DNA of 64,000 nt from Patescibacteria group bacterium (GTDB taxonomy: Bacteria; Patescibacteriota; Patescibacteriia; JBDRGY01). The stretch lies in NCBI GenBank assembly GCA_043817315.1, contig JBDRGY010000006.1, positions 18,077 through 82,076 on the forward strand, given 5' to 3'. The notes under the pieces are model-generated. The model ran no database searches and was not told where the DNA came from. It saw nothing but the letters and a program-made list of their open reading frames with translations. Shown here in pieces: positions 1,951 to 53,032 of this stretch. Every line of letters begins with the position of its first letter. The first letter of the stretch is position 1. The translations under genes and the position numbers were made by a program.

Positions 1951-2027
1951 GGGAGCGTAGCTCAGTTGGTTAGAGCGCTTGCTCGACACGCAAGAGGTCA
2001 GAGGTTCAAATCCCCTCGCTCCCACCA
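1951..2027 (+). tRNA. tRNA-Val, anticodon GAC (loop TCGACAC has C at position 33), CCA encoded
   Basis: Acceptor GGGAGCG/CGCTCCC, D GCTC/GAGC, anticodon stem CTTGC/GCAAG, T arm AGAGG-TTCAAAT-CCCCT (one A-C mismatch), discriminator A, CCA. Confidence 0.65.
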
Positions 2028-3293: not shown

Positions 3294-3371
3294 GGGCGAT
3301 TAGCTCAGTTGGTTTAGAGCGCTTCGTTTACACCGAAGAGGTCGGGGGTTCGATTCCCTCATCGCCCACCA
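3294..3371 (+). tRNA. tRNA-Val, anticodon UAC, CCA encoded
   Basis: Acceptor GGGCGAT/ATCGCCC, anticodon stem CTTCG/CGAAG with loop TTTACAC, T GGGGG-TTCGATT-CCCTC. Confidence 0.85.
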
Positions 3372-3643: not shown

Positions 3644-3719
3644 GGGCCCTTAGCTCATCTGGTAGAGCGCCGCCTTTGCATGGCGGAGGTGACCGGTTCG
3701 ATCCCGGTAGGGTCCACCA
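3644..3719 (+). tRNA. tRNA-Ala, anticodon UGC, CCA encoded
   Basis: Acceptor GGGCCCT/AGGGTCC with the G3:U70 Ala identity pair, anticodon stem CCGCC/GGCGG with loop TTTGCAT, T ACCGG-TTCGATC-CCGGT. Confidence 0.9.
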
Positions 3720-3737
3720 GATTTAATCTATAAAAAA

Positions 3738-3762
3738 TCTCGAGAAGTGTTCTCGAGTTTTT
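3738..3762 (+). terminator. intrinsic terminator after the tRNA cluster
   Basis: Perfect 8-bp hairpin CTCGAGAA-GTG-TTCTCGAG followed by TTTTT. Confidence 0.6.
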
Positions 3763-3829
3763 AGTTTCTTGGGTGAAATTATGCTAGCTAATCTAGACTA
3801 AAGTCGTTGAAAAACAATCTTTTCATATT

Positions 3830-5665
3830 TTAATCTACTCTGGTGACTAAGCCGAAATTACCCCCAGTGACTTCCATGTCATTTCTTAGCCAATCCAGCT
3901 CGAAGAGTTGATGATAAAAGCCGGGCTGTCTATTGAAGTAATAAAATTCAAAAGTGCCGATCTCGCCGTGTCTGACCACTTTCTCTTTTAATCGTATCTG
4001 GCCAATTGTACTGTTCCAGCTGCTGTCATAAAACAAGCTGGGCTTATAATTAAGATCGTAGATGTTTAATCTCATATTTTGATCCCAAATAGCCAGTCCG
4101 GTGTTTTTAAACTTAACCACGGCTTTGGGTCTCCAGGCGGATTGAATGGCTTGAGGGATATTGTGTTCTACTAGCTCTGCTTTAAAATGAGAATCCACTC
4201 TGGTCACTAAATCAAATTCGCCGTTAATCGCCTCTTGGTCCTCACAAAACAGCTTGAATATCTGTTTATAATTTCCAGGAGAATTGGGAGATTTTAGGTA
4301 AAAGGTAAAGGTGCCGGTTTGGCCGCTTTTTACCGCTTCTTCATTTAACACTATCTGGCCGTAGGGCGACGCCCAGGAACCGTCTTGATAAACTGAAGGG
4401 GCCAAGCCCAAGTCATAGATGTTTAAATGAGTATTGTTTTTAGTCCAAGTAACCACGCCTCGGTTCTGGAAACTAAAAGTAGTTTTAAGGCGAGCCCCGG
4501 TAAAAGTTGCCGACAGAACATCGTTGTCAATTAAATTACCGGCATAGTCAAAGCCAATCACATTTACCTTGATATTAAATCGGGTATCTGGGATTTCTTT
4601 ACCATCGTACATTAGATAGAATTCATCAGTAATCTCTAGTTGGTCAGCTGGTGCCTCGATAGTAAAAGAAATCTTGCCAATTTCTTGGGGAGCTACATTG
4701 GCAGTCAGTAAATCTATATGATTACCATCAGCGCTGGTCAATTGTAACAGGCTGTTACTGCCATAATCAGCTGAGGCCAGATACACTGTGTCTTCGAAAT
4801 AACGCCGCCAGGTGAAGTTGCCGGTGTTTTTATACTTAGCCCAGATAGTAGCAGTTTCTCCTGGCTCTAGGGTAATTTCCTTAGCACTCTGCTCGGTTAA
4901 TTCGGCCTTGGCTACCGGTATAAAGGATGCTCCGGTATCTTTAAGGCTTTGATACAGGGACAGGGCCGAAGATCTAATGCTGCTCAGCTTGATTTCTACA
5001 TTGCTACCAGGGCAAAGGGTGCAGTCCACGTCTTGGTGGCCAACTACGTTAGGCATATTGGCGATATCCCGCCAAGTTAGTTTGGCATTAGGATTAATCC
5101 CCAGGCTAGCTCCTTTGTGAGCGATTAATTTTACCAAGGCGTTAATCGCTTTCTGGCTAGGCTGGCTCTCTTCGTAATTCCCTAGAAGCGAAATACCGAT
5201 AGTGCCCTCATTAAAATCAATTCCTTCTTTGGATCCGCCGAAGCGCACTACGTTACAACCAGAATCTCTAAAGGCGTGAGCTCCGACCACTCCGTCTCCT
5301 CCCTTTCTTCCTTCATAAATATTTCCCTGGGAATCGATCAAATAGTTATAACCAATATCACCCCAGCCTAATATTTGAGCGTGGTAGTAATAAATAGCTC
5401 TGACTGTAGCTTCCGGGTTGTCACCACCGTTGGAGCCGGCTGTATGATGGATCACAAATTTTTGTGGTCTTTGATACTGCAAGGGCCAGATAGTATCCTT
5501 GTCCGAATCCAAAAGATAATCAGCATCAGCTTCCCATTGCTCTCTGGTAATTATAGTTAACGGGCTAGCTGCTGCTTCGGTTTTTTGAGGACAAAATAAA
5601 ACCGCTAATAAAATAGCGGCAAATATAACCAAAAATGGCTTGAATTGACTAAGGACTTTTTTCAT
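3830..5665 (-). CDS. secreted N-acetylmuramoyl-L-alanine amidase (Amidase_2/PGRP-type domain) with C-terminal tandem ~100-aa repeat domains
   Basis: N-terminal signal peptide. Amidase_2-like block IHHTAGSNGG...GWGDIGYNYLIDSQGNIYEGR. Two full and one partial repeat of a ~100-aa domain (…GQIVLNEEAVKSGQTGTFTFYLKSP…DLVTRVD). Confidence 0.75.
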   Translation of the reverse strand: MKKVLSQFKPFLVIFAAILLAVLFCPQKTEAAASPLTIITREQWEADADYLLDSDKDTIWPLQYQRPQKFVIHHTAGSNGGDNPEATVRAIYYYHAQILGWGDIGYNYLIDSQGNIYEGRKGGDGVVGAHAFRDSGCNVVRFGGSKEGIDFNEGTIGISLLGNYEESQPSQKAINALVKLIAHKGASLGINPNAKLTWRDIANMPNVVGHQDVDCTLCPGSNVEIKLSSIRSSALSLYQSLKDTGASFIPVAKAELTEQSAKEITLEPGETATIWAKYKNTGNFTWRRYFEDTVYLASADYGSNSLLQLTSADGNHIDLLTANVAPQEIGKISFTIEAPADQLEITDEFYLMYDGKEIPDTRFNIKVNVIGFDYAGNLIDNDVLSATFTGARLKTTFSFQNRGVVTWTKNNTHLNIYDLGLAPSVYQDGSWASPYGQIVLNEEAVKSGQTGTFTFYLKSPNSPGNYKQIFKLFCEDQEAINGEFDLVTRVDSHFKAELVEHNIPQAIQSAWRPKAVVKFKNTGLAIWDQNMRLNIYDLNYKPSLFYDSSWNSTIGQIRLKEKVVRHGEIGTFEFYYFNRQPGFYHQLFELDWLRNDMEVTGGNFGLVTRVD

Positions 5666-31947: not shown

Positions 31948-32955
31948 ATGAAAATTCTAGGCATAGAAACATCATGTGACGAAACAGCCGCTGCTTTGAT
32001 TCAGGCTGAAGGTGAAAAAATTAAAGTTATCACTAGCGTCATTTCTTCGCAAGTTGATATCCATAGAAAATTTGGCGGAATTGTTCCGGAAGTGGCAGCA
32101 CGGGAACACCTGAAAAACATTTTACCGATTATTGACCAGGCTTTGGGACGAAATAAATGGTCTGACGTTGATTATATTGCCGTGACTTCTGGTCCTGGCT
32201 TAGTCACCTCCTTACTAGTGGGAGTGGAAACAGCTAAAACACTATCGCTGGTCCTTAAAATTCCCTTACTGTCCATAAACCACATTGAAGCTCATGTTTA
32301 TGCCAACTGGCTGTCCGGCAGGATTAAATTGCCGGCTTTAAGTTTGGTAGTTTCTGGCGGCCATACCCAATTAATTTTGATCAATAATCAGGGTCACTAT
32401 AAAATTATCGGTCAAACCTTGGACGATGCTATCGGCGAATGCTTTGATAAAGTGGCCAAGATTCTAAATGTTGGTTATCCGGGCGGTCCGGCGATTGAAA
32501 AGTTAGCACGATCCGGTGATTCTAAAAAGATCAACTTTCCTCGTCCTCTAATTAACCAGTTAAACTATAATTTTAGTTTCTCTGGTCTAAAAACTTCTGT
32601 ACTTTATTTCACTCGATCGGTTCCTAATAAAGGGTTCCTGAAGCCCGACATTTGTGCCAGCTTTCAGCAGGCAGCCGTTGACGTTTTGGTGGCCAAAACG
32701 GTACGAGCTACTAATGAGCATAAGGTAAAGACGGTCATGCTGGCCGGTGGAGTTGCTGCTAACCAGAAATTGCGCACCACTCTAAAAAACCAACTAAAAA
32801 AACAGTCTCCCAAAACATCATTTATGGTGCCGGATTTTCCTCTGTGTACCGACAACGCTTTAATGATTGCCATAGCTGGTTATTTTAAGGCCAAGAAGGG
32901 GCTGACCACTCCCTGGCAGCAATTAACTGCTGACCCCAATTGGCAGTTGAGTTAA
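31948..32955 (+). CDS. tsaD: tRNA N6-adenosine threonylcarbamoyltransferase TsaD
   Basis: MKILGIETSCDETAAALI…HIEAH…SGGHTQL…GVAANQKLR is typical of TsaD/Kae1. Confidence 0.9.
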   Translation: MKILGIETSCDETAAALIQAEGEKIKVITSVISSQVDIHRKFGGIVPEVAAREHLKNILPIIDQALGRNKWSDVDYIAVTSGPGLVTSLLVGVETAKTLSLVLKIPLLSINHIEAHVYANWLSGRIKLPALSLVVSGGHTQLILINNQGHYKIIGQTLDDAIGECFDKVAKILNVGYPGGPAIEKLARSGDSKKINFPRPLINQLNYNFSFSGLKTSVLYFTRSVPNKGFLKPDICASFQQAAVDVLVAKTVRATNEHKVKTVMLAGGVAANQKLRTTLKNQLKKQSPKTSFMVPDFPLCTDNALMIAIAGYFKAKKGLTTPWQQLTADPNWQLS

Positions 32956-32956
32956 C

Positions 32957-33190
32957 TTGACTCAATGCTGTCTAGGCCCTAAAATAGAACTATCATTAAA
33001 TCAAGCTAATAGCGCTATGATCAGAGTCTGTGTCGCTCTGAAAGCTGAGGGTCCTAAAAGGCCGACTGCCTCGATAAGTCCTCCGGGTACGTCCGTCATC
33101 GCGTAAAATAAGCGTCCTGTCTCCCGGGAGTACAGGGAATTAAGGTGGTACCGCCTGAGAGGGTCCTTAAACGTACTAAGGACTTTTTTA
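32957..33190 (+). promoter_or_regulatory. T-box riboswitch leader of valS (promoter TTGACT-17-TAAAAT at 32957-32985, T-box sequence at 33138-33155, terminator at 33163-33188)
   Basis: AATTAAGGTGGTACCGCC matches the T-box consensus AAUUAGGGUGGNACCGCG, followed by GTCCTTA-aacgtac-TAAGGAC + T6. Lies upstream of an aminoacyl-tRNA synthetase gene. Stem I contains a GA-rich (AUGAUCAGAG) segment. Confidence 0.6.
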
Positions 33191-33192
33191 AT

Positions 33193-35502
33193 ATGAAAAA
33201 AGAGTTAAGCAAACAATATAATCCCTTCGACGTTGAAGACAAAATTTACCAACAATGGGAAAAATCTGGATATTTTAATCCGGATAAACTGCCGGATGCC
33301 AAGAAAAGAAAGCCCTATTCCATTGCTATGCCTCCGCCCAATGTAACCGGCGACCTCCACCTGGGGCACGCCATTACCCTAACCATAGAAGACGTCTTGG
33401 CTCGCTTTAAAAGAATGCAGGGGTACGCCGCTCTATGGCTTCCGGGGACTGACCACGCAGGAATTTCTACCCAAATAATGGTTGAAAGATTGATCGCCAA
33501 GTCCGGCTTAGACCGCCATAAATTAGGTCGCCAGAAATTCTTAGAAAGGGTCTGGCAATGGAAAAATGAGTATGGCGATATCATTACCAAACAGATTCGC
33601 AAGATGGGCGCTTCCTGTGATTGGTCGCGAGAGCATTTCACTTTAGACCCCAAATTAACCAAAGCCACACAAACTGCTTTTATCAAACTGTTTAACGACG
33701 GGTTGATTTATCGCGGCAATCGTATTATTAATTGGTGTCCCCGATGTGCTTCTGCAATTTCTGACCTGGAAGTGACTCACCGGGAACATAAAACAAAATT
33801 ATGGCACCTTAAATATCCACTTTTACAAAATGGCCAGCCAAGTAATCAATTTCTGATTGTAGCTACGACCCGTCCTGAAACTATGCTGGGCGATACCGCC
33901 GTGGCCGTCAATCCTAAAGATAAACGCTACAAGAAACTAGTCGGGCAAAGGGTCTTGCTACCCTTAATGGACCGGGCCATCCCTGTTATAGCTGATTCCC
34001 GAGTGGATATGGAGTTTGGCACCGGAGCAGTTAAAGTAACTCCGGCTCATGATCCTTTGGACTGGGAGATCGGTCAAAAGCACCGGCTAGAAGCCATCCA
34101 GGTAATAGACGAGAGAACCTTTATCACCAAAAACGGCGGCCGCTACGCCGGGCTGAAAGCTAAAGAAGCACGGCAGAAAATAATTATCGATTTGCAAAAT
34201 ATAAAACTGCTGGATAAGGAAGAAGATTATGACCACTCTATTGCTCGTTGTGAAAGATGCAATTCGGTAATCGAGCCGCTAATCTCTAAACAATGGTTTG
34301 TAAAGATAAAACCTTTGGCCCAGTCAGCTATTGAGGAAGTTAAGAAGGGTAAAATAAAAATCACCCCTAAACGCTTTGAAAAAGTGTACTTCCACTGGAT
34401 GAATAATATCAAAGACTGGTGCATTTCCCGTCAGCTGTGGTGGGGGCATCAAATACCTATCTGGTATTGCCAATCCTGCGATGAAGCTATTGCCTCGGTA
34501 ACCAAACCAAAATCCTGTACAAAGTGTACGGACAAAAAGTTTAAGCAAGATGAAGACACTCTAGATACCTGGTTCAGCTCCGGCCTATGGACTTTTTCCA
34601 CTTTGGGCTGGCCAGCCAAAACCTCTGACCTTAAGCGATTCCACCCCACCGATCTAATGGAGACCGGTTGGGATATTCTCTTTTTCTGGGTGGCCAGAAT
34701 GATTATGCTAAGTCTCTATTTGCACCAGGAAAAACCTTTTAACCAAGTATACCTTCATGGACTAATCCTGGACCGCCAAGGTAGAAAAATGAGTAAGTCT
34801 AAAGGCACCGGACTAGATCCCCTGGTCTTAACTGAAAAATATGGTACCGATGCTTTGAGGATGTCTTTGGTGATCGGAAATTCTGCCGGCCAGGACTTTC
34901 GTCTCTATGAGGAAAAAGTGGCCGGCTACCGCAATTTTTCCAATAAACTCTGGAACGTATCCCGCTACATTCTAATGCAGGAATATAAATGTTGTTCCTA
35001 CGACGCCTCTGCTTTGGCTGACCAGTGGATTATCAGCCGCCTCAATCAAGTAATCGAAGAAACCACCACCAATTTGGAGAACCTCCGTTTCTCAGAGGCC
35101 GGGACTTTGCTATATGAGTTTATCTGGCATGAGTTGGCTGACTGGTATCTAGAAGCAACTAAATTTCGGCCCAATCCTGACCTCCTCTATCACTTATTAA
35201 TAAACGTCCTCAAGCTGCTACACCCCTTCATGCCTTTCATCACCGAAGAAGTCTGGTCCCAACTTCCTCATCAGAACCTTCTGATGATAGAAGATTGGCC
35301 CGTAACTAAAAAGGCTCTAATAAAAAGCGAATCTATTGATCGCTTTCAGCAGTTACAAGGTTTGGTGACTGAATTTCGTAATTATAAAAAGGACCAAAAA
35401 ATTCCGCCCAAGGAAGTTGTCGGGATTAAAAAGATAATACCTGCCAAGATCAAAGATCAGAAAGGGCTTATTGAATTTTTGGCCAACGTAAAAATTGCTT
35501 AA
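33193..35502 (+). CDS. valS: valine--tRNA ligase
   Basis: Class I HIGH (PPNVTGDLHLGHA) and KMSKS (GRKMSKSKG) motifs plus ValRS-wide similarity. Start moved to the ATG after the leader terminator. Confidence 0.9.
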   Translation: MKKELSKQYNPFDVEDKIYQQWEKSGYFNPDKLPDAKKRKPYSIAMPPPNVTGDLHLGHAITLTIEDVLARFKRMQGYAALWLPGTDHAGISTQIMVERLIAKSGLDRHKLGRQKFLERVWQWKNEYGDIITKQIRKMGASCDWSREHFTLDPKLTKATQTAFIKLFNDGLIYRGNRIINWCPRCASAISDLEVTHREHKTKLWHLKYPLLQNGQPSNQFLIVATTRPETMLGDTAVAVNPKDKRYKKLVGQRVLLPLMDRAIPVIADSRVDMEFGTGAVKVTPAHDPLDWEIGQKHRLEAIQVIDERTFITKNGGRYAGLKAKEARQKIIIDLQNIKLLDKEEDYDHSIARCERCNSVIEPLISKQWFVKIKPLAQSAIEEVKKGKIKITPKRFEKVYFHWMNNIKDWCISRQLWWGHQIPIWYCQSCDEAIASVTKPKSCTKCTDKKFKQDEDTLDTWFSSGLWTFSTLGWPAKTSDLKRFHPTDLMETGWDILFFWVARMIMLSLYLHQEKPFNQVYLHGLILDRQGRKMSKSKGTGLDPLVLTEKYGTDALRMSLVIGNSAGQDFRLYEEKVAGYRNFSNKLWNVSRYILMQEYKCCSYDASALADQWIISRLNQVIEETTTNLENLRFSEAGTLLYEFIWHELADWYLEATKFRPNPDLLYHLLINVLKLLHPFMPFITEEVWSQLPHQNLLMIEDWPVTKKALIKSESIDRFQQLQGLVTEFRNYKKDQKIPPKEVVGIKKIIPAKIKDQKGLIEFLANVKIA

Positions 35503-44844: not shown

Positions 44845-46206
44845 ATGGACAAAGATCAGTTGTGGCAAGCCACTTTAGGCGAATTAGAGTTGTCGATTTC
44901 TAAGGCCAATTTCACCACTTGGTTTAAAAATACTTTTATTTCTTCATACGAAAACGATAAAGTAATTATTGCTGCGCCCAACGCTTTTACCAAGGCATGG
45001 TTGGAGCAAAAATACCATAAAGCTATTCTAAAAGCCCTCCAAAACGTTACTGGTAACGTTAAGGAGGTTATTTATAAAGTCGAAAATATTAAGACCGGGG
45101 ACAAGAAAGAGCCCAAAAAAGAAGTGGCCAAAATAAAAGAAGTGGCCCAAAGAATTGAAGATGAAAAAAGAGATTCTTTTAATAAATTCGGTATAAATCC
45201 TAAATACACTTTCGAAAGTTATGTCGTGGGCAAGGCTAACGAATTAGCCAAAGCTGCCTGTCATGCGGTAGCTGAAAAACCCGGTCTTGTTTACAATCCT
45301 TTATTTCTTTATGGCGGTGTAGGGCTGGGTAAAACCCATCTTATGCAGGCTATTGCCAATTATGTTTTGGCTAAGGATAAAAGTAAAAAAATACTATATG
45401 TTCCTAGTGAAAAATTTACCAATGAATTTATCCAATCGGTTTCTAATGGTAAAATAAGCAGCTTCAAAGATACTTATCGTACAGCTGATGTTCTTTTGAT
45501 TGACGATATCCAGTTTTTGGCTGGTAAAGAGGGTACACAGGAGGAATTTTTTCACACCTTTAACGCCCTGCATCAAGCCAACAAGCAAATTGTATTAAGT
45601 TCAGATCGTCCCCCTAAGGCCATCCCAGCCCTGGAACAACGATTAATTTCTCGGTTTGAATGGGGTATGATTGCAGACATTGCCTCTCCAGATTTAGAGA
45701 CTCGCATTGCTATTCTGGACACTAAATGCAGAGAAAAGGGCGTAAAAATAAACCGTGAAATTCTTAACTATATCGGCACCTCGATTCATAGTAATGTTCG
45801 GGAATTAGAGGGAGCGCTTAATAAGATCGTAGCCTACTCCCAACTAAATAACTCTGAACCCGACCTAGAGGCTGCTAAAAATGTACTTTCTTCGTTAGTT
45901 TCTGCTTCTCCTAATAAGGCGGTTACGGCCAAACAGCTGATCAGCACTGTGGCTAGTTATTTTGACATTTCTCCTGAAGATTTGGGAGGCCAAAGCCGCA
46001 AAAAAGAATTAGTAGTACCTAGACAAATTGCTATGTATCTGATGCGAGATGATTTGAAGTGTTCCTACCCCAATATAGGTCAAGAGTTAGGCGGGCGTGA
46101 TCACACCACCGCTATGCATGCCCATTCAAAAATAATCAAAGAAATTGAGAAGGATGAAAAGACCAGGCAAGACATAAATTTGATTCGCCAAAGACTCTAC
46201 AGCTGA
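44845..46206 (+). CDS. dnaA: chromosomal replication initiator DnaA
   Basis: AAA+ Walker A GGVGLGKTHL, sensor motifs, and a C-terminal DNA-binding domain. Confidence 0.9.
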   Translation: MDKDQLWQATLGELELSISKANFTTWFKNTFISSYENDKVIIAAPNAFTKAWLEQKYHKAILKALQNVTGNVKEVIYKVENIKTGDKKEPKKEVAKIKEVAQRIEDEKRDSFNKFGINPKYTFESYVVGKANELAKAACHAVAEKPGLVYNPLFLYGGVGLGKTHLMQAIANYVLAKDKSKKILYVPSEKFTNEFIQSVSNGKISSFKDTYRTADVLLIDDIQFLAGKEGTQEEFFHTFNALHQANKQIVLSSDRPPKAIPALEQRLISRFEWGMIADIASPDLETRIAILDTKCREKGVKINREILNYIGTSIHSNVRELEGALNKIVAYSQLNNSEPDLEAAKNVLSSLVSASPNKAVTAKQLISTVASYFDISPEDLGGQSRKKELVVPRQIAMYLMRDDLKCSYPNIGQELGGRDHTTAMHAHSKIIKEIEKDEKTRQDINLIRQRLYS

Positions 46207-46459
46207 TGTTAATAACATCTGTATTGTTCTGTTAAAAAAATGAGGATAAATAATCTACTTATTAAGACCTGTTGTTTTTTTAAAACTAATCAACAGTCTG
46301 TCCCGAAAGTTCTTAACAAGTTCTTCACAAAAAAATTTTTATTAAATCTTGAAATGGTCAATTGTTTCAACAGGATTACGCTTTCAATTAATTTAATCCA
46401 CAAATCCACAGCCCTTATTACTACTACTAAATAATTAAATTCAAATAAGGAATAATTAT
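46207..46459. other. candidate oriC (dnaA-dnaN intergenic): DnaA-box-like 9-mers plus AT-rich unwinding element
   Basis: TGAGGATAA (46241-46249), TAATCCACA (46394-46402), AAATCCACA (46402-46410), each within 1-2 mismatches of TTATCCACA/TGTGGATAA, then a very AT-rich tract at 46411-46459. A second box cluster sits upstream of dnaA (TTATCCTCC 44724-44732; TAATCCACA 44735-44743). Confidence 0.5.
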
Positions 46460-47557
46460 ATGAAATTCTCTTGCACCCAAGAAAATCTAAATCATGGCCT
46501 GAACGTGGTTAATCACGTAGCCAGTAAAAATGCCAACTTGCCGATTCTGGCTAATGTTTTAATTGAAGTCGACAAAACGGGTATTAAACTTTCTACCACC
46601 AATCTTGAAGTTGGCGTTTCTAGTACCGTGCGGGGCAAAATCGAAGAGCCTGGTAAACTTACCGTGCCGGCTCGTCTTTTTGCAGATTACGTAAGCTTGC
46701 TACCCAATGAAAAAGTTGACTTTGAGTCAGAAGAAAATGATTTGAAAGTATCCTGCCAAAAGTCACACACTAAAATAAAAGGGATGCAGGCAGATGAATT
46801 TCCGGTGATCCCCCAAGTAGACAAAAAAGACAAGTGCCAAATAAAGGCCAAGGACTTTAAGGCAAGTATTGCGTCGGTAATTTTTGCTGTAGCCTACGAT
46901 GAGTCTCGGCCAGAGATCTCAGGTGTTTTTACGCAGTTTAAGGACAAGGAAATGACATTGGTAGCCACAGATAGTTATCGGTTAGCCGAGAAAAAGGTGC
47001 AGCTGAGCGACGGATCAAAAAAGGAGCAAGGAGTGATTGTGCCAGTCAGAACCTATCAAGAGCTGATGCGTGTTTTGGAAAGCGAAGAGGATATTTTAGA
47101 AATTAATTTAAATGAAAACCAGATACAATTCAGTCTGGGCGATGTTGAACTGGTTTCCAGGGTTATTGATGGCCAATATCCAGATTATCAACAGATAATT
47201 CCTGCAGAACAGCGAACAACAGCAGTGGTTAACTTGCCAGAGTTCGTCAAGGCCATTAAAACCGCTTCCCTTTTTTGTAAAAGCGGTATCAACGATATCA
47301 ATCTAAATTTCGAGAAGGATAAGATTAAGATCCACACTTCGAACACCCAAATCGGAGAGAACGAATCGGAAGTAGAAGCCAAGATTCAGGGAGATAATAA
47401 CCAGATTGTATTTAACTACCGTTATTTGTTGGATGGCCTGGCTAACTTAGACGGAGAAGAGACCGAAATAAGATTGATTGACAGCGTTAATCCTGGCCTA
47501 TTGGTGCCCCCAGGACAGTCTGATTATCTGTATATTATAATGCCGATAAAACAGTAG
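46460..47557 (+). CDS. dnaN: DNA polymerase III beta sliding clamp
   Basis: 365 aa; N-terminus MKFSCTQENLNHGLNVV and a three-domain clamp-like profile. Directly downstream of dnaA. Confidence 0.9.
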   Translation: MKFSCTQENLNHGLNVVNHVASKNANLPILANVLIEVDKTGIKLSTTNLEVGVSSTVRGKIEEPGKLTVPARLFADYVSLLPNEKVDFESEENDLKVSCQKSHTKIKGMQADEFPVIPQVDKKDKCQIKAKDFKASIASVIFAVAYDESRPEISGVFTQFKDKEMTLVATDSYRLAEKKVQLSDGSKKEQGVIVPVRTYQELMRVLESEEDILEINLNENQIQFSLGDVELVSRVIDGQYPDYQQIIPAEQRTTAVVNLPEFVKAIKTASLFCKSGINDINLNFEKDKIKIHTSNTQIGENESEVEAKIQGDNNQIVFNYRYLLDGLANLDGEETEIRLIDSVNPGLLVPPGQSDYLYIIMPIKQ

Positions 47558-52087: not shown

Positions 52088-52976
52088 ACTTTTTACGATT
52101 AGTTATTAGAGCTGCTCCTAAAATATTGGAATGATATGGAGTTTTAGATTTCACAATTTTGGTTTTTAACTGTTCAGGATATAATAATAGTTTTTTCACT
52201 TTTTGTCTAGCCGGGTTAATAATCGGAGCCACAGTGCTAAGTCCTCCGCCGATGACAATAATATGGGGGTCATAGGCGTAGATAATATTAGCCAGACCAA
52301 TGGCCAAGTAATCAGACATCGTTTTAAGTAGTAACGAAGCGGCTCTCTCCCCTTTTTTGGCTGCCGCTACGATTTCATAAGTATCTTTTTTCTGCCCAGT
52401 TCTCTTCTTGTAAAGATAGATCATGGCGTTACCAGAGACGTAAGATTCAAAATGACCAAATCCTCCACACTTACATTTTTCCCCGTCCTTTTGCACTATG
52501 ATATGTCCAGCCTCTACAAGATTTTGACTGCCAGGATAAATTTTCTTATTAATAGTCAGAGCAAAGCCAATGCCGGTGCCTAAAGTTATACCGGCCACAA
52601 TAGGATATACTTTACCTTGTCCTATAATTGTTTCGGCCAGAACAAAACAGTTGGGATCATGCTCGATGAAGGTGGGCAGGCCAAGGCGTTGTTGTAAGAT
52701 TTTGGCTACTGCAAGATGACGACGAGCCCGCGGAAGATTATGACAATAGTGAAGAACTCCCTTGTGAGGATCAATGTTTCCAGGCAAAGCAACACCAATT
52801 TTTTTAACAAGCGGTGTTTTTAACTTTTTTGTAACATCGACTATGTCCTCAATTAAATATTTCCCCTGGGCTCGTATCGCTTTCTTGGAAAAAGCGACAA
52901 CCTGGTTATCAGAAACCAACCCGGCCTTAACCGAGGTACCCCCCACATCAATTCCTATAATAGTGCCTTTTTTCAT
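52077..52976 (-). CDS. ROK-family sugar kinase (glucokinase-like)
   Basis: N-terminal GIDVGGTSVKAGLV and ROK Zn motif CKCGGFGHFE…. Confidence 0.8.
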   Translation of the reverse strand: MKKGTIIGIDVGGTSVKAGLVSDNQVVAFSKKAIRAQGKYLIEDIVDVTKKLKTPLVKKIGVALPGNIDPHKGVLHYCHNLPRARRHLAVAKILQQRLGLPTFIEHDPNCFVLAETIIGQGKVYPIVAGITLGTGIGFALTINKKIYPGSQNLVEAGHIIVQKDGEKCKCGGFGHFESYVSGNAMIYLYKKRTGQKKDTYEIVAAAKKGERAASLLLKTMSDYLAIGLANIIYAYDPHIIVIGGGLSTVAPIINPARQKVKKLLLYPEQLKTKIVKSKTPYHSNILGAALITNRKKYAS

Positions 52977-52987
52977 AACCTAATTAT

Positions 52988-53023
52988 AACAAAAACAAGC
53001 AGTTATAAGAAGTTTCTGCTTGT
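52988..53023 (-). terminator. intrinsic terminator after the galT-like gene (minus strand)
   Basis: Minus strand reads ACAAGCAG-(13 nt)-CTGCTTGT followed by TTTTTGTT. Confidence 0.45.
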
Positions 53024-53032
53024 TCTATTGAT

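Follow-up and report, generated by a model that had tools for sequence, protein, structure and literature searches.

A probable T-box riboswitch of reduced architecture in the valS leader of a Patescibacteria genome

The DNA considered here, called the window in what follows, is a stretch of 64,000 nucleotides of contig JBDRGY010000006.1 from a Patescibacteria group bacterium. In this window the gene valS, which encodes a valine--tRNA ligase (ValRS), is preceded by a leader of about 200 nucleotides, spanning approximately 32992-33192, that is homologous to the T-box family, the textbook tRNA-sensing riboswitches. An initial annotation, made from the sequence alone, had proposed a classic T-box leader for valS. 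The core of this proposal stands, with covariation in relatives behind it, but the anatomy was wrong in four respects, one of them being that the arrangement is not the classic one: Stem I is ultrashort, the AG-bulge and distal-loop platform is absent, and the match to the family model lies under its gathering score. We conclude with high confidence that the leader is a functional T-box riboswitch of reduced architecture. What is new is the combination of a short Stem I T-box on valS in a lineage of the candidate phyla radiation (CPR), a U-tract hairpin, and the lack of a consensus kink-turn (K-turn). T-boxes have been described mainly from Bacillota (PMC7583486), and a full-text literature search returned no paper joining T-box, riboswitch and Patescibacteria, which does not prove that the literature holds none. 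Six papers bring together the candidate phyla radiation and riboswitches; one of them speaks of riboswitches only as prospective genetic tools.

In a local scan, the Rfam T-box model RF00230 matches positions 33008-33171 at 38.5 bits and E = 3e-07, or about 5e-05 when scaled to the whole window. This covariance-model check, suggested with the initial annotation, has a mixed outcome: the match runs from end to end (model positions 1-219), but its score is below the gathering score of 93 bits. Three elements from relatives, which we call L003, L161 and L165, behave in the same way: they score 36.0, 44.4 (E = 1.8e-07) and 23.6 bits, and over the four elements, with the full model aligned, the E-values go from 1.8e-07 to 2e-03. 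The shortfall arises because Stem I positions are missing: in the window leader, 11 nucleotides stand in for 76 Stem I positions of the model, with about 65 nucleotides absent. Since the copies score 24-44 bits, annotation at the gathering threshold would miss them, and the distribution of such elements may be underestimated.

Could the resemblance be fortuitous, an ordinary intergenic sequence happening to match the T-box core? A scan of the whole window with Rfam at the gathering threshold reports six tRNAs only, and no T-box, while a 12-mer with two mismatches allowed is expected to occur about twice by chance. However, the match to the model is full-length at the E-value given above, all the modules appear in the correct order upstream of the matching synthetase gene, and the element is conserved with covariation in relatives; we hold a chance match to be extremely improbable. 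The sequence AATTAAGGTGGTACCGCC, found at 33138-33155 where the initial annotation had placed the T-box sequence, is the only exact T-box core within the window. Two other candidates were discarded: a second T-box at 52866-53026, which reaches 12.9 bits with the filters of the covariance model off, has no T-box sequence, overlaps a minus-strand terminator and is spurious; weak Rfam matches to nqrA-II and SNORD108, with E above 1, are noise. The features of the leader and its surroundings are collected in Table 1.

Table 1. Features of the valS leader, its flanking genes and the two tRNA-Val genes, in window coordinates.
Feature	Position	Strand	Basis or detail
tsaD, upstream flank	31948-32955	+	TIGR03723, 408 bits
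Sigma-70-type promoter TTGACT-17-TAAAAT	32957-32985	+	10/12 matches; directly after tsaD stop (32955)
Ultrashort Stem I	33011-33046	+	Rfam alignment, fold, covariation
9-nt apical specifier loop UCUGUGUCG	33027-33035	+	sister and L165 comparison
Stem II	33047-33083	+	4/6 lower-helix pairs and 2 upper-helix pairs with compensatory changes
Stem IIA/B pseudoknot	33084-33105	+	covariation, Rfam alignment
Discriminator entry	33110-33139	+	RRRNG motif AAGCG (33110-14), Stem III (33115-33137), AA (33138-39)
T-box sequence and antiterminator	33138-33170	+	AAUUAAGGUGGUACCGCC at 33138-55; energy -6.9 kcal/mol
OFF-state hairpin GUCCUUA-AACGUAC-UAAGGAC + U6	33163-33189	+	arms 33163-69 with 33177-83; U6 33184-89
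Shine-Dalgarno-like UAAGGA	33177-33182	+	in hairpin 3' arm; AUG 10 nt after stem
valS (valine--tRNA ligase, 769 aa), predicted regulated gene	33193-35502	+	NF004349, 1078 bits, profile positions 2-739 of 860
tRNA-Val(GAC), predicted ligand	1951-2027	+	anticodon loop UCGACAC (C33), A73, encoded CCA
tRNA-Val(UAC)	3294-3371		A73, encoded CCA

In L003 and L161 the leader lies between tsaD and valS, as it does in the window, and the ValRS proteins are respectively 81% and 77% identical to that of the window; a further locus, L172, is an independent re-assembly of L003, 99.6% identical to it. When the structure derived by hand is laid on these three sister leaders, 97.4% of the cells are paired and 12 of the 40 pairs have changed on both sides. 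Not one of 500 shuffles reaches 12, and sliding the 3' partners by 1-3 columns leaves 0-2. RNAalifold, applied independently, counts 13 compensatory pairs and recovers Stem I, Stem II, IIB, Stem III and the hairpin. The leaders are 66-67% identical, as compared with 34-46% at the four-fold degenerate sites of valS and tsaD in the three sister genomes: with synonymous sites saturated, this identity implies purifying selection on the structure of the leader.

A covariance model built from the three leaders, denoted R1, gives them 172-177 bits and finds one further, divergent element with the same short Stem I, at 52 bits and E about 1e-14. It was recovered from two samples, in the identical sequences L164 and L165, whose ValRS identity is 62%. 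The distribution of the T-box among Patescibacteria-like valS loci is patchy. Scans of genomes and metagenomes with ValRS yield L003 and one truncated contig only; among the contigs of ten ValRS homologs, L161, L164/L165 and the duplicate of L003 carry the element, and L162, L163 and L166-L171 do not. R1 finds no element in about ten other Patescibacteria-like valS loci (L001, L002, L004-L007, L044, L162, L163, L166-L171), in several of which the intergenic region is only 30-75 nucleotides long, and a pattern scan of viral contigs reveals no further member of the family.

Such a distribution might suggest that the leader is a decaying relic of a canonical valS T-box, which lost its distal Stem I and no longer regulates anything. 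The truncation of Stem I and the degraded K-turn and S-turn consensus motifs would agree with decay, as would the absence of the element from most related Patescibacteria valS loci and its position in L165, 1.1 kb away from valS with opposite-strand open reading frames (ORFs) in between. However, the identity of the leaders remains about 66% despite the saturation of synonymous sites, pairing is kept in the 12 pairs that changed on both sides, and in every copy the specifier loop is intact, as are the T-box bulge, the F-box and the hairpin with its U6. We consider decay very improbable.

At the base of Stem I in the functional T-box that we propose, 33014-15 pair with 33044-45, in a helix that could be lengthened to AGC/GCU. 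Above it, an asymmetric internal loop (33016-33020 / 33042-43) takes the place expected for a K-turn, and a 6-bp helix (33021-26 with 33036-41) carries the specifier loop at its apex. The 6-bp helix exists in the variants CAGAG/CUCUG, CAGGG/CCCUG and UGGGG/CCCCA, and as CUUGG/CCAGG in L165. The platform formed by the AG bulge and distal loop, to which the elbow of the tRNA binds, is missing from the window leader, L003, L161 and L165. A segment resembling a GA motif, which the initial annotation had noted at the start of Stem I, does exist (AUGAUCAGAG, 33017-33026), but its reading as a GA motif is not conserved and relatives have no tandem G.A: the window has AUGA opposite AA, with one possible G.A pair, while the internal loops are ACAA/CCA in L003, AAAUA/AGA in L161 and CAUUAU/AAAAU in L165.

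The specifier is the codon GUC at 33032-33034, followed by the purine G33035, which adjoins the closing helix strand 33036-41. All three sister leaders share the unvarying motif GUGUCG (33030-35), which becomes GUGUCA, with GUC followed by A, in L165. In known T-boxes a conserved purine follows the specifier, which is located in a side bulge or, where Stem I is short, in its apical loop (PMC7583486). In the canonical valS T-boxes of Clostridia, the specifier loop has GAA-N-GUC/GUA-R on its 3' side, directly before the helix: the placement of GUC and purine is the same here. Folding Stem I by hand, as the initial annotation had advised, thus locates a GUN codon followed by a purine, in the apical loop. 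The valine triplets that it had picked as candidates lie elsewhere, in GGGUACGUCCGUCAUC (33085-33100), a stretch that is in fact the Stem IIA/B pseudoknot together with the F-box CCGUCA (33093-33098). Another candidate, GUG at 33030-32, would stand in an anticodon-like loop of 7 nucleotides closed by U33027-G33035; it is less likely because it is not next to a purine and helix, and it is further weakened by the change of the would-be U-turn base from U to A in L161 and by the U34-G wobble that it would need with tRNA-Val(UAC).

Downstream, Stem II has a lower helix (33047-52 with 33078-83), an upper helix (33059-62 with 33068-71) and, between them, the conserved internal loop CCUAAA (33053-58) / CGAUAA (33072-77). 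From its sequence, this loop may be a variant S-turn with the all-purine string A57-A56-A76-A77-G78, possibly analogous to the string of five purines in the ileS T-box of Nocardia (PMC7583486). In the element of L165, an additional hairpin separates Stem I from Stem II. In the pseudoknot that follows, IIA pairs 33084-87 with 33092-95 and IIB pairs 33088-91 with 33102-05; IIB covaries in four versions, UACG/CGUA, UUCG/CGAA, UUGG/CCAA and AACG/CGUU, and the Rfam alignment sets the F-box CCGUCA on the consensus CCGUUA. The discriminator is then entered through the succession of RRRNG, Stem III and AA defined in the TBDB paper (PMC7778990), with the outer pairs of Stem III kept in the sister leaders. 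RNAalifold also proposes a long-range helix GCGCU/AGYGU, which we reject: AAGYG is the conserved RRRNG motif, and L165 is unable to form the helix.

The antiterminator is composed of helix A1 (33140-45 with 33165-70) and helix A2 (33153-56 with 33161-64), the latter closed by the GNRA loop GAGA. A2 covaries, with GCCU/GGGU in the window, ACCG/CGGU and ACCU/GGGU in the sister leaders, and AUCC/GGAU in L165. The bulge of 7 nucleotides, UGGUACC (33146-52), begins with UGGU (33146-49), which matches the A73-CCA end of both tRNA-Val genes, in agreement with the pairing to the tRNA end predicted by the initial annotation. The competing hairpin has an energy of -6.7 kcal/mol for its core, and of -14.6 with the G-U and A-U pairs that extend it into the U-tract (z = -3.25); each of the three leaders retains both the hairpin and the U6. 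Because nucleotides 33163-33169 belong to both the antiterminator and the OFF hairpin, the two states are mutually exclusive, as the initial annotation had expected folding to show; the overlap is alike in the three leaders, with an analogous helix in L165. The same annotation had described this hairpin as a terminator. Its arms GTCCTTA (33163-33169) and TAAGGAC (33177-33183) and the run T6 are there, but it is not a terminator only: its 3' arm contains a Shine-Dalgarno (SD)-like sequence. This UAAGGA is the only SD-like, purine-rich element before the AUG of valS, and is UAGGGA in L003 and UAAGGA in L161. Other genes of the window have SD sequences of the type UAAGGAG, and some, such as tsaD, have none.

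With these elements, the following mechanism can be proposed. The leader would be transcribed from the promoter TTGACT-17-TAAAAT, and the 6-bp Stem I would present GUC and its purine in the apical loop of 9 nucleotides. Stem I, the purine-rich loop of Stem II and IIA/B would clamp the anticodon of tRNA-Val(GAC), as in actinobacterial ileS, with no platform for the elbow. An uncharged tRNA-Val, whose ACCA end is free, would be paired there by Stem III and the UGGU of the bulge; this would stabilise the antiterminator (33140-33170), and valS would be expressed. If the tRNA is charged or absent, 33163-33169 would pair with 33177-33183 to form the OFF hairpin; followed by U6, this hairpin would terminate transcription, weakly, and on the messenger RNA that is read through it would occlude the ribosome-binding site and block initiation. 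From sequence and structure we infer the binding of the tRNA, the response to its charge, and the level at which control is exerted.

As to this level, both termination and SD occlusion are possible because U6 directly follows the hairpin and the SD lies in its 3' arm. We think it likely that SD sequestration contributes to the control of valS, and reasonably probable that termination does; that the hairpin acts on both transcription and translation in the clade of the window is the reading that we favour over either level alone, if at somewhat less than even odds. The terminator scanner reports no site at the hairpin, but only because it lengthens the stem through G-U pairs with the U-tract.

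Suppose that the leader is a purely transcriptional attenuator of the classic kind, with an incidental SD-like sequence. The U6 abuts the hairpin in each of the three leaders, and at the end of the L165 element stands a GC-rich stem, CCGCG/CGCGG (-8.3 kcal/mol), then UUUUGUUUUUU, with no SD, start codon or plus-strand ORF following, which points to action at the level of transcription only in that element; moreover, the genome does use intrinsic terminators, and a small hairpin with U7 stands directly before the start codon of rluA. On the other hand, Stem I lacks the elbow platform said to be required (PMC7583486), and the core of the hairpin is weak. The only SD-like element is inside the stem, with the AUG 10 nucleotides on, which means that a full-length RNA carrying the hairpin would also be blocked; in the version put forward by the initial annotation, the specifier assignment is wrong as well. 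Purely transcriptional control is in our view unlikely.

Suppose, conversely, that control is purely translational, as in the class of actinobacterial ileS: the hairpin would be a reversible sequestrator of the SD, and the U-run an A/U-rich spacer. Translational T-boxes are described with just such an ultrashort Stem I, bearing the specifier at its apex and accompanied by Stem II and IIA/B (PMC7583486); the SD lies in the 3' arm with the AUG shortly downstream, and the antiterminator, at -6.4 to -8.5, is close in energy to the core hairpin, at -6.7 to -7.3. But a perfect U6 abuts the stem in three leaders, L165 has a U-tract terminator without a ribosome-binding site, and, once pairing with the U-tract is counted, the OFF state is far more stable than the ON state, -19.2 versus -6.9 in the window and -20.2 versus -6.4 in L161. 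This reading is rather unlikely too. The argument that U-rich spacers between SD and AUG occur without hairpins was dropped, its rluA example being in fact provided with a small conserved hairpin.

That hairpin, CCUC-GUU-GAGG, is followed by A, U7 and AAUCAU-AUG, at 2033-2062 between tRNA-Val(GAC) and rluA. It is kept, with a compensatory change (GCUC...GAGC), in L173, a contig of the L003 organism, and is a second terminator-like hairpin directly before a start codon in this compact genome.

Several points weigh against a functional T-box, or against parts of the mechanism above. All four elements are far under the gathering score of RF00230, and they are four distinct sequences from two lineages only, which leaves few independent changes behind the statistics. 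By sequence inspection, no canonical K-turn, with its tandem G.A, is found in the window, L003, L161 or L165, and none is conserved among them, though the asymmetric internal loop is always there; yet the K-turn is reported to be essential for the binding of tRNA by short constructs made of Stem I and Stem II (PMC7583486). The Stem II loop, UAA/NUAA, departs from the S-turn consensus GAA/AGUA. With 3 G-C pairs, a loop of 7 nucleotides and -6.7 kcal/mol, the hairpin core is weak when compared with the clear intrinsic terminators found elsewhere in the window, at -9 to -18 kcal/mol, and the SD-like sequence of its arm results in part automatically from complementarity to T-box helix A1. Transcriptional T-boxes are said to need the elbow platform for fast capture of the tRNA (PMC7583486), a point against efficient co-transcriptional control in this leader. 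Finally, the tRNA-Val(GAC) gene of the L003 organism was not recovered.

Turning to the ligand, both isoacceptors of tRNA-Val, GAC and UAC, are encoded in the window, as the initial annotation had observed. With the anticodon of tRNA-Val(GAC), the specifier GUC can form Watson-Crick pairs at all three positions, while tRNA-Val(UAC) would leave a U-C mismatch. U33 is near-universal in tRNAs, and it is present in the four other tRNAs of the window whose anticodon loops were read (tRNA-Leu(GAG) being left out). The C33 of tRNA-Val(GAC) is not an isolated case: the organism of L161 has the same loop in its own tRNA-Val(GAC) (L175 2386-2462; also L174), despite a compensatory change in the anticodon stem.

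With this C33, the 6 nucleotides at positions 33-38 of tRNA-Val(GAC), CGACAC, have a perfect complement in the loop GUGUCG (33030-35). In simulations, a random loop has such a complement with a probability of 0.0015, which rises to 0.0135 once GUC is fixed. It is tempting to conjecture that Patescibacteria T-boxes, devoid of elbow platform and consensus K-turn and co-transcriptional at least in L165, compensate through an extended loop-loop helix, but we regard this as quite unlikely. The helix would join GUGUC(G/A) to tRNA positions 34-38, with C33 added in the window clade for a total of 6 bp, and its existence is equally doubtful. Extended kissing as a compensation for the lost elbow contact is a post hoc explanation with no covariation yet, and improbable; if true, it would represent a novel way for a riboswitch to capture tRNA, one that may have evolved together with an atypical tRNA.

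Next to tRNA-Val(GAC), at 1865-1941, lies a tRNA-Ile whose anticodon is UAU, and the sister organism has kept it (L175 2117-2192). It suggests that AUA is read by the UAU tRNA rather than through the lysidine (TilS) route. At the place where relatives carry tRNA-Ile(UAU) and tRNA-Val(GAC), the L003 organism has two odd elements (L173 1-100): both end in CCACCA, and GC-rich 8-bp hairpins replace the T-arm (GGUC-GUCCCGCCAAGGCGGGAC..., GGUC-ACCCCGCCAGAGGCGGGGU...). ARAGORN calls no tRNA at L173 1-100, which is a contig end, where misassembly is possible.

How does the element compare with known T-boxes? Its nearest likeness is to the ultrashort Stem I T-boxes of actinobacterial ileS genes (Mycobacterium tuberculosis, M. 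smegmatis, Nocardia farcinica), which form the translational class II of TBDB. Both have a short Stem I helix, a specifier and purine in the apical loop, and no AG-bulge/distal-loop platform (PMC7583486), and both have a purine-rich Stem II loop, the IIA/B pseudoknot, and an OFF helix whose 3' arm contains an SD-like sequence. By analogy, the window leader may depend on Stem II and IIA/B as the actinobacterial class does. They differ in gene and tRNA (valS and tRNA-Val versus ileS and tRNA-Ile) and in host (Patescibacteria versus Actinobacteria). The OFF helix of the window, unlike that of the actinobacterial leaders, is followed by a U6 tract, L165 has a stand-alone U-rich terminator, there is no consensus K-turn, and the putative S-turn reads UAA/NUAA here instead of GAA/AGUA. 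The class II model of TBDB was applied only to Actinobacteria and to truncated class I matches (PMC7778990).

The valS T-boxes of Bacillota (Clostridia loci L008, L028 and L054; RF00230) control the same gene, with GUC or GUA and a purine abutting the proximal helix. The window leader has in common with them Stem II, the F-box, Stem III, AAUU(A/C)AGGUGGUACC, an antiterminator with a bulge of 7 nucleotides, and a competing hairpin. Contrary to the window leader with its 38.5 bits, these canonical leaders, from loci fetched by the same ValRS query, score 119-145 bits; their Stem I has about 90 nucleotides, with a K-turn (UGA...GAG), an S-turn in the specifier loop, an AGAGA bulge and a GGUNGNGA distal loop, and their valS starts some 50 nucleotides or more past the T-box match, whereas here the AUG is 10 nucleotides after the hairpin. 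The glyQS T-box (Bacillus subtilis, Geobacillus, Oceanobacillus) is likewise reduced, with a switch between terminator and antiterminator and a UGGN-NCCA contact. However, its reduction is the opposite one: glyQS drops Stem II and IIA/B and keeps a long Stem I with elbow platform (PMC7583486).

Ultrashort Stem I T-boxes have been described as translational, mostly actinobacterial, and located on ileS, transcriptional T-boxes generally needing a long Stem I (PMC7583486). The valS element extends the short Stem I architecture beyond Actinobacteria and beyond ileS, and the association of a short Stem I with a U-tract hairpin runs against the rules on elbow-binding Stem I and on the need for a K-turn. 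If the switch operates as proposed, a CPR organism with a reduced genome keeps an RNA-based feedback on an aminoacyl-tRNA synthetase, and this compact element of about 200 nucleotides offers a testable case of a minimal T-box able to recognise its tRNA.

Some of the relatives deserve separate mention. In L165 (1706-3001, equal to L164 155-1450), the element is separated from valS by three minus-strand ORFs of 111, 104 and 102 amino acids, with no Pfam match, which end in their own convergent terminator hairpin GGCCUC...GAGGCC: either the element was orphaned by an insertion, or it drives a 1.1-kb antisense read-through to valS. Two T-box-free valS genes of related Patescibacteria share another conserved leader, in which AAATCCTAAA repeats abound together with inverted copies of them, GGATTTAG (L166 2316-2500 and L167 2439-2653). 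L003 (JAIWBS010000055.1) belongs to a metagenome-assembled genome labelled 'Pirellulales bacterium', although it is 99.6% identical to L172 (GCA_030617445.1, JAUWVJ010000018.1) and has the Patescibacteria-type synteny of the window, with tRNA-Glu, tsaD, valS and pilB; the contig is probably mis-binned.

The host of the window has a GC content of 43%. The RluA of the window matches, at 100% identity, a protein that NCBI names 'Patescibacteria group bacterium', which bears out the remark of the initial annotation that this T-box occurs in a CPR-like genome, and the named top matches of ValRS are from Patescibacteria, Parcubacteria or Kerfeldbacteria, except one labelled only 'bacterium'. The valS gene starts at the ATG at 33193, not at the GTG of a longer ORF at 33145, as homologs align from residue 1. 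The promoter just after tsaD, correctly located by the initial annotation, is kept in both sister leaders, as TTGACT-17-TACTAT in L003 and TTGACT-17-TAAGAT in L161, and would set the start of the leader transcript near 32992. The window holds no other synthetase leader to compare, valS being the sole aminoacyl-tRNA synthetase gene there.

The ValRS of the window lacks the C-terminal coiled-coil domain PF10458, which is present in most Patescibacteria homologs (about 840-860 amino acids); the short form is common to the lineages that bear the T-box and to some T-box-free relatives (P0032, P0046). Farther away, dnaA and dnaN adjoin at 44860-47557, which suggests that the region of the chromosomal replication origin is within the window. 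At 3719-3830, between tRNA-Ala and a convergent amidase gene, there is a palindromic hairpin, CUCGAGAAGUGUUCUCGAG, which has flanking T-runs on each strand (3737 minus, 3758 plus) and looks like a bidirectional terminator.

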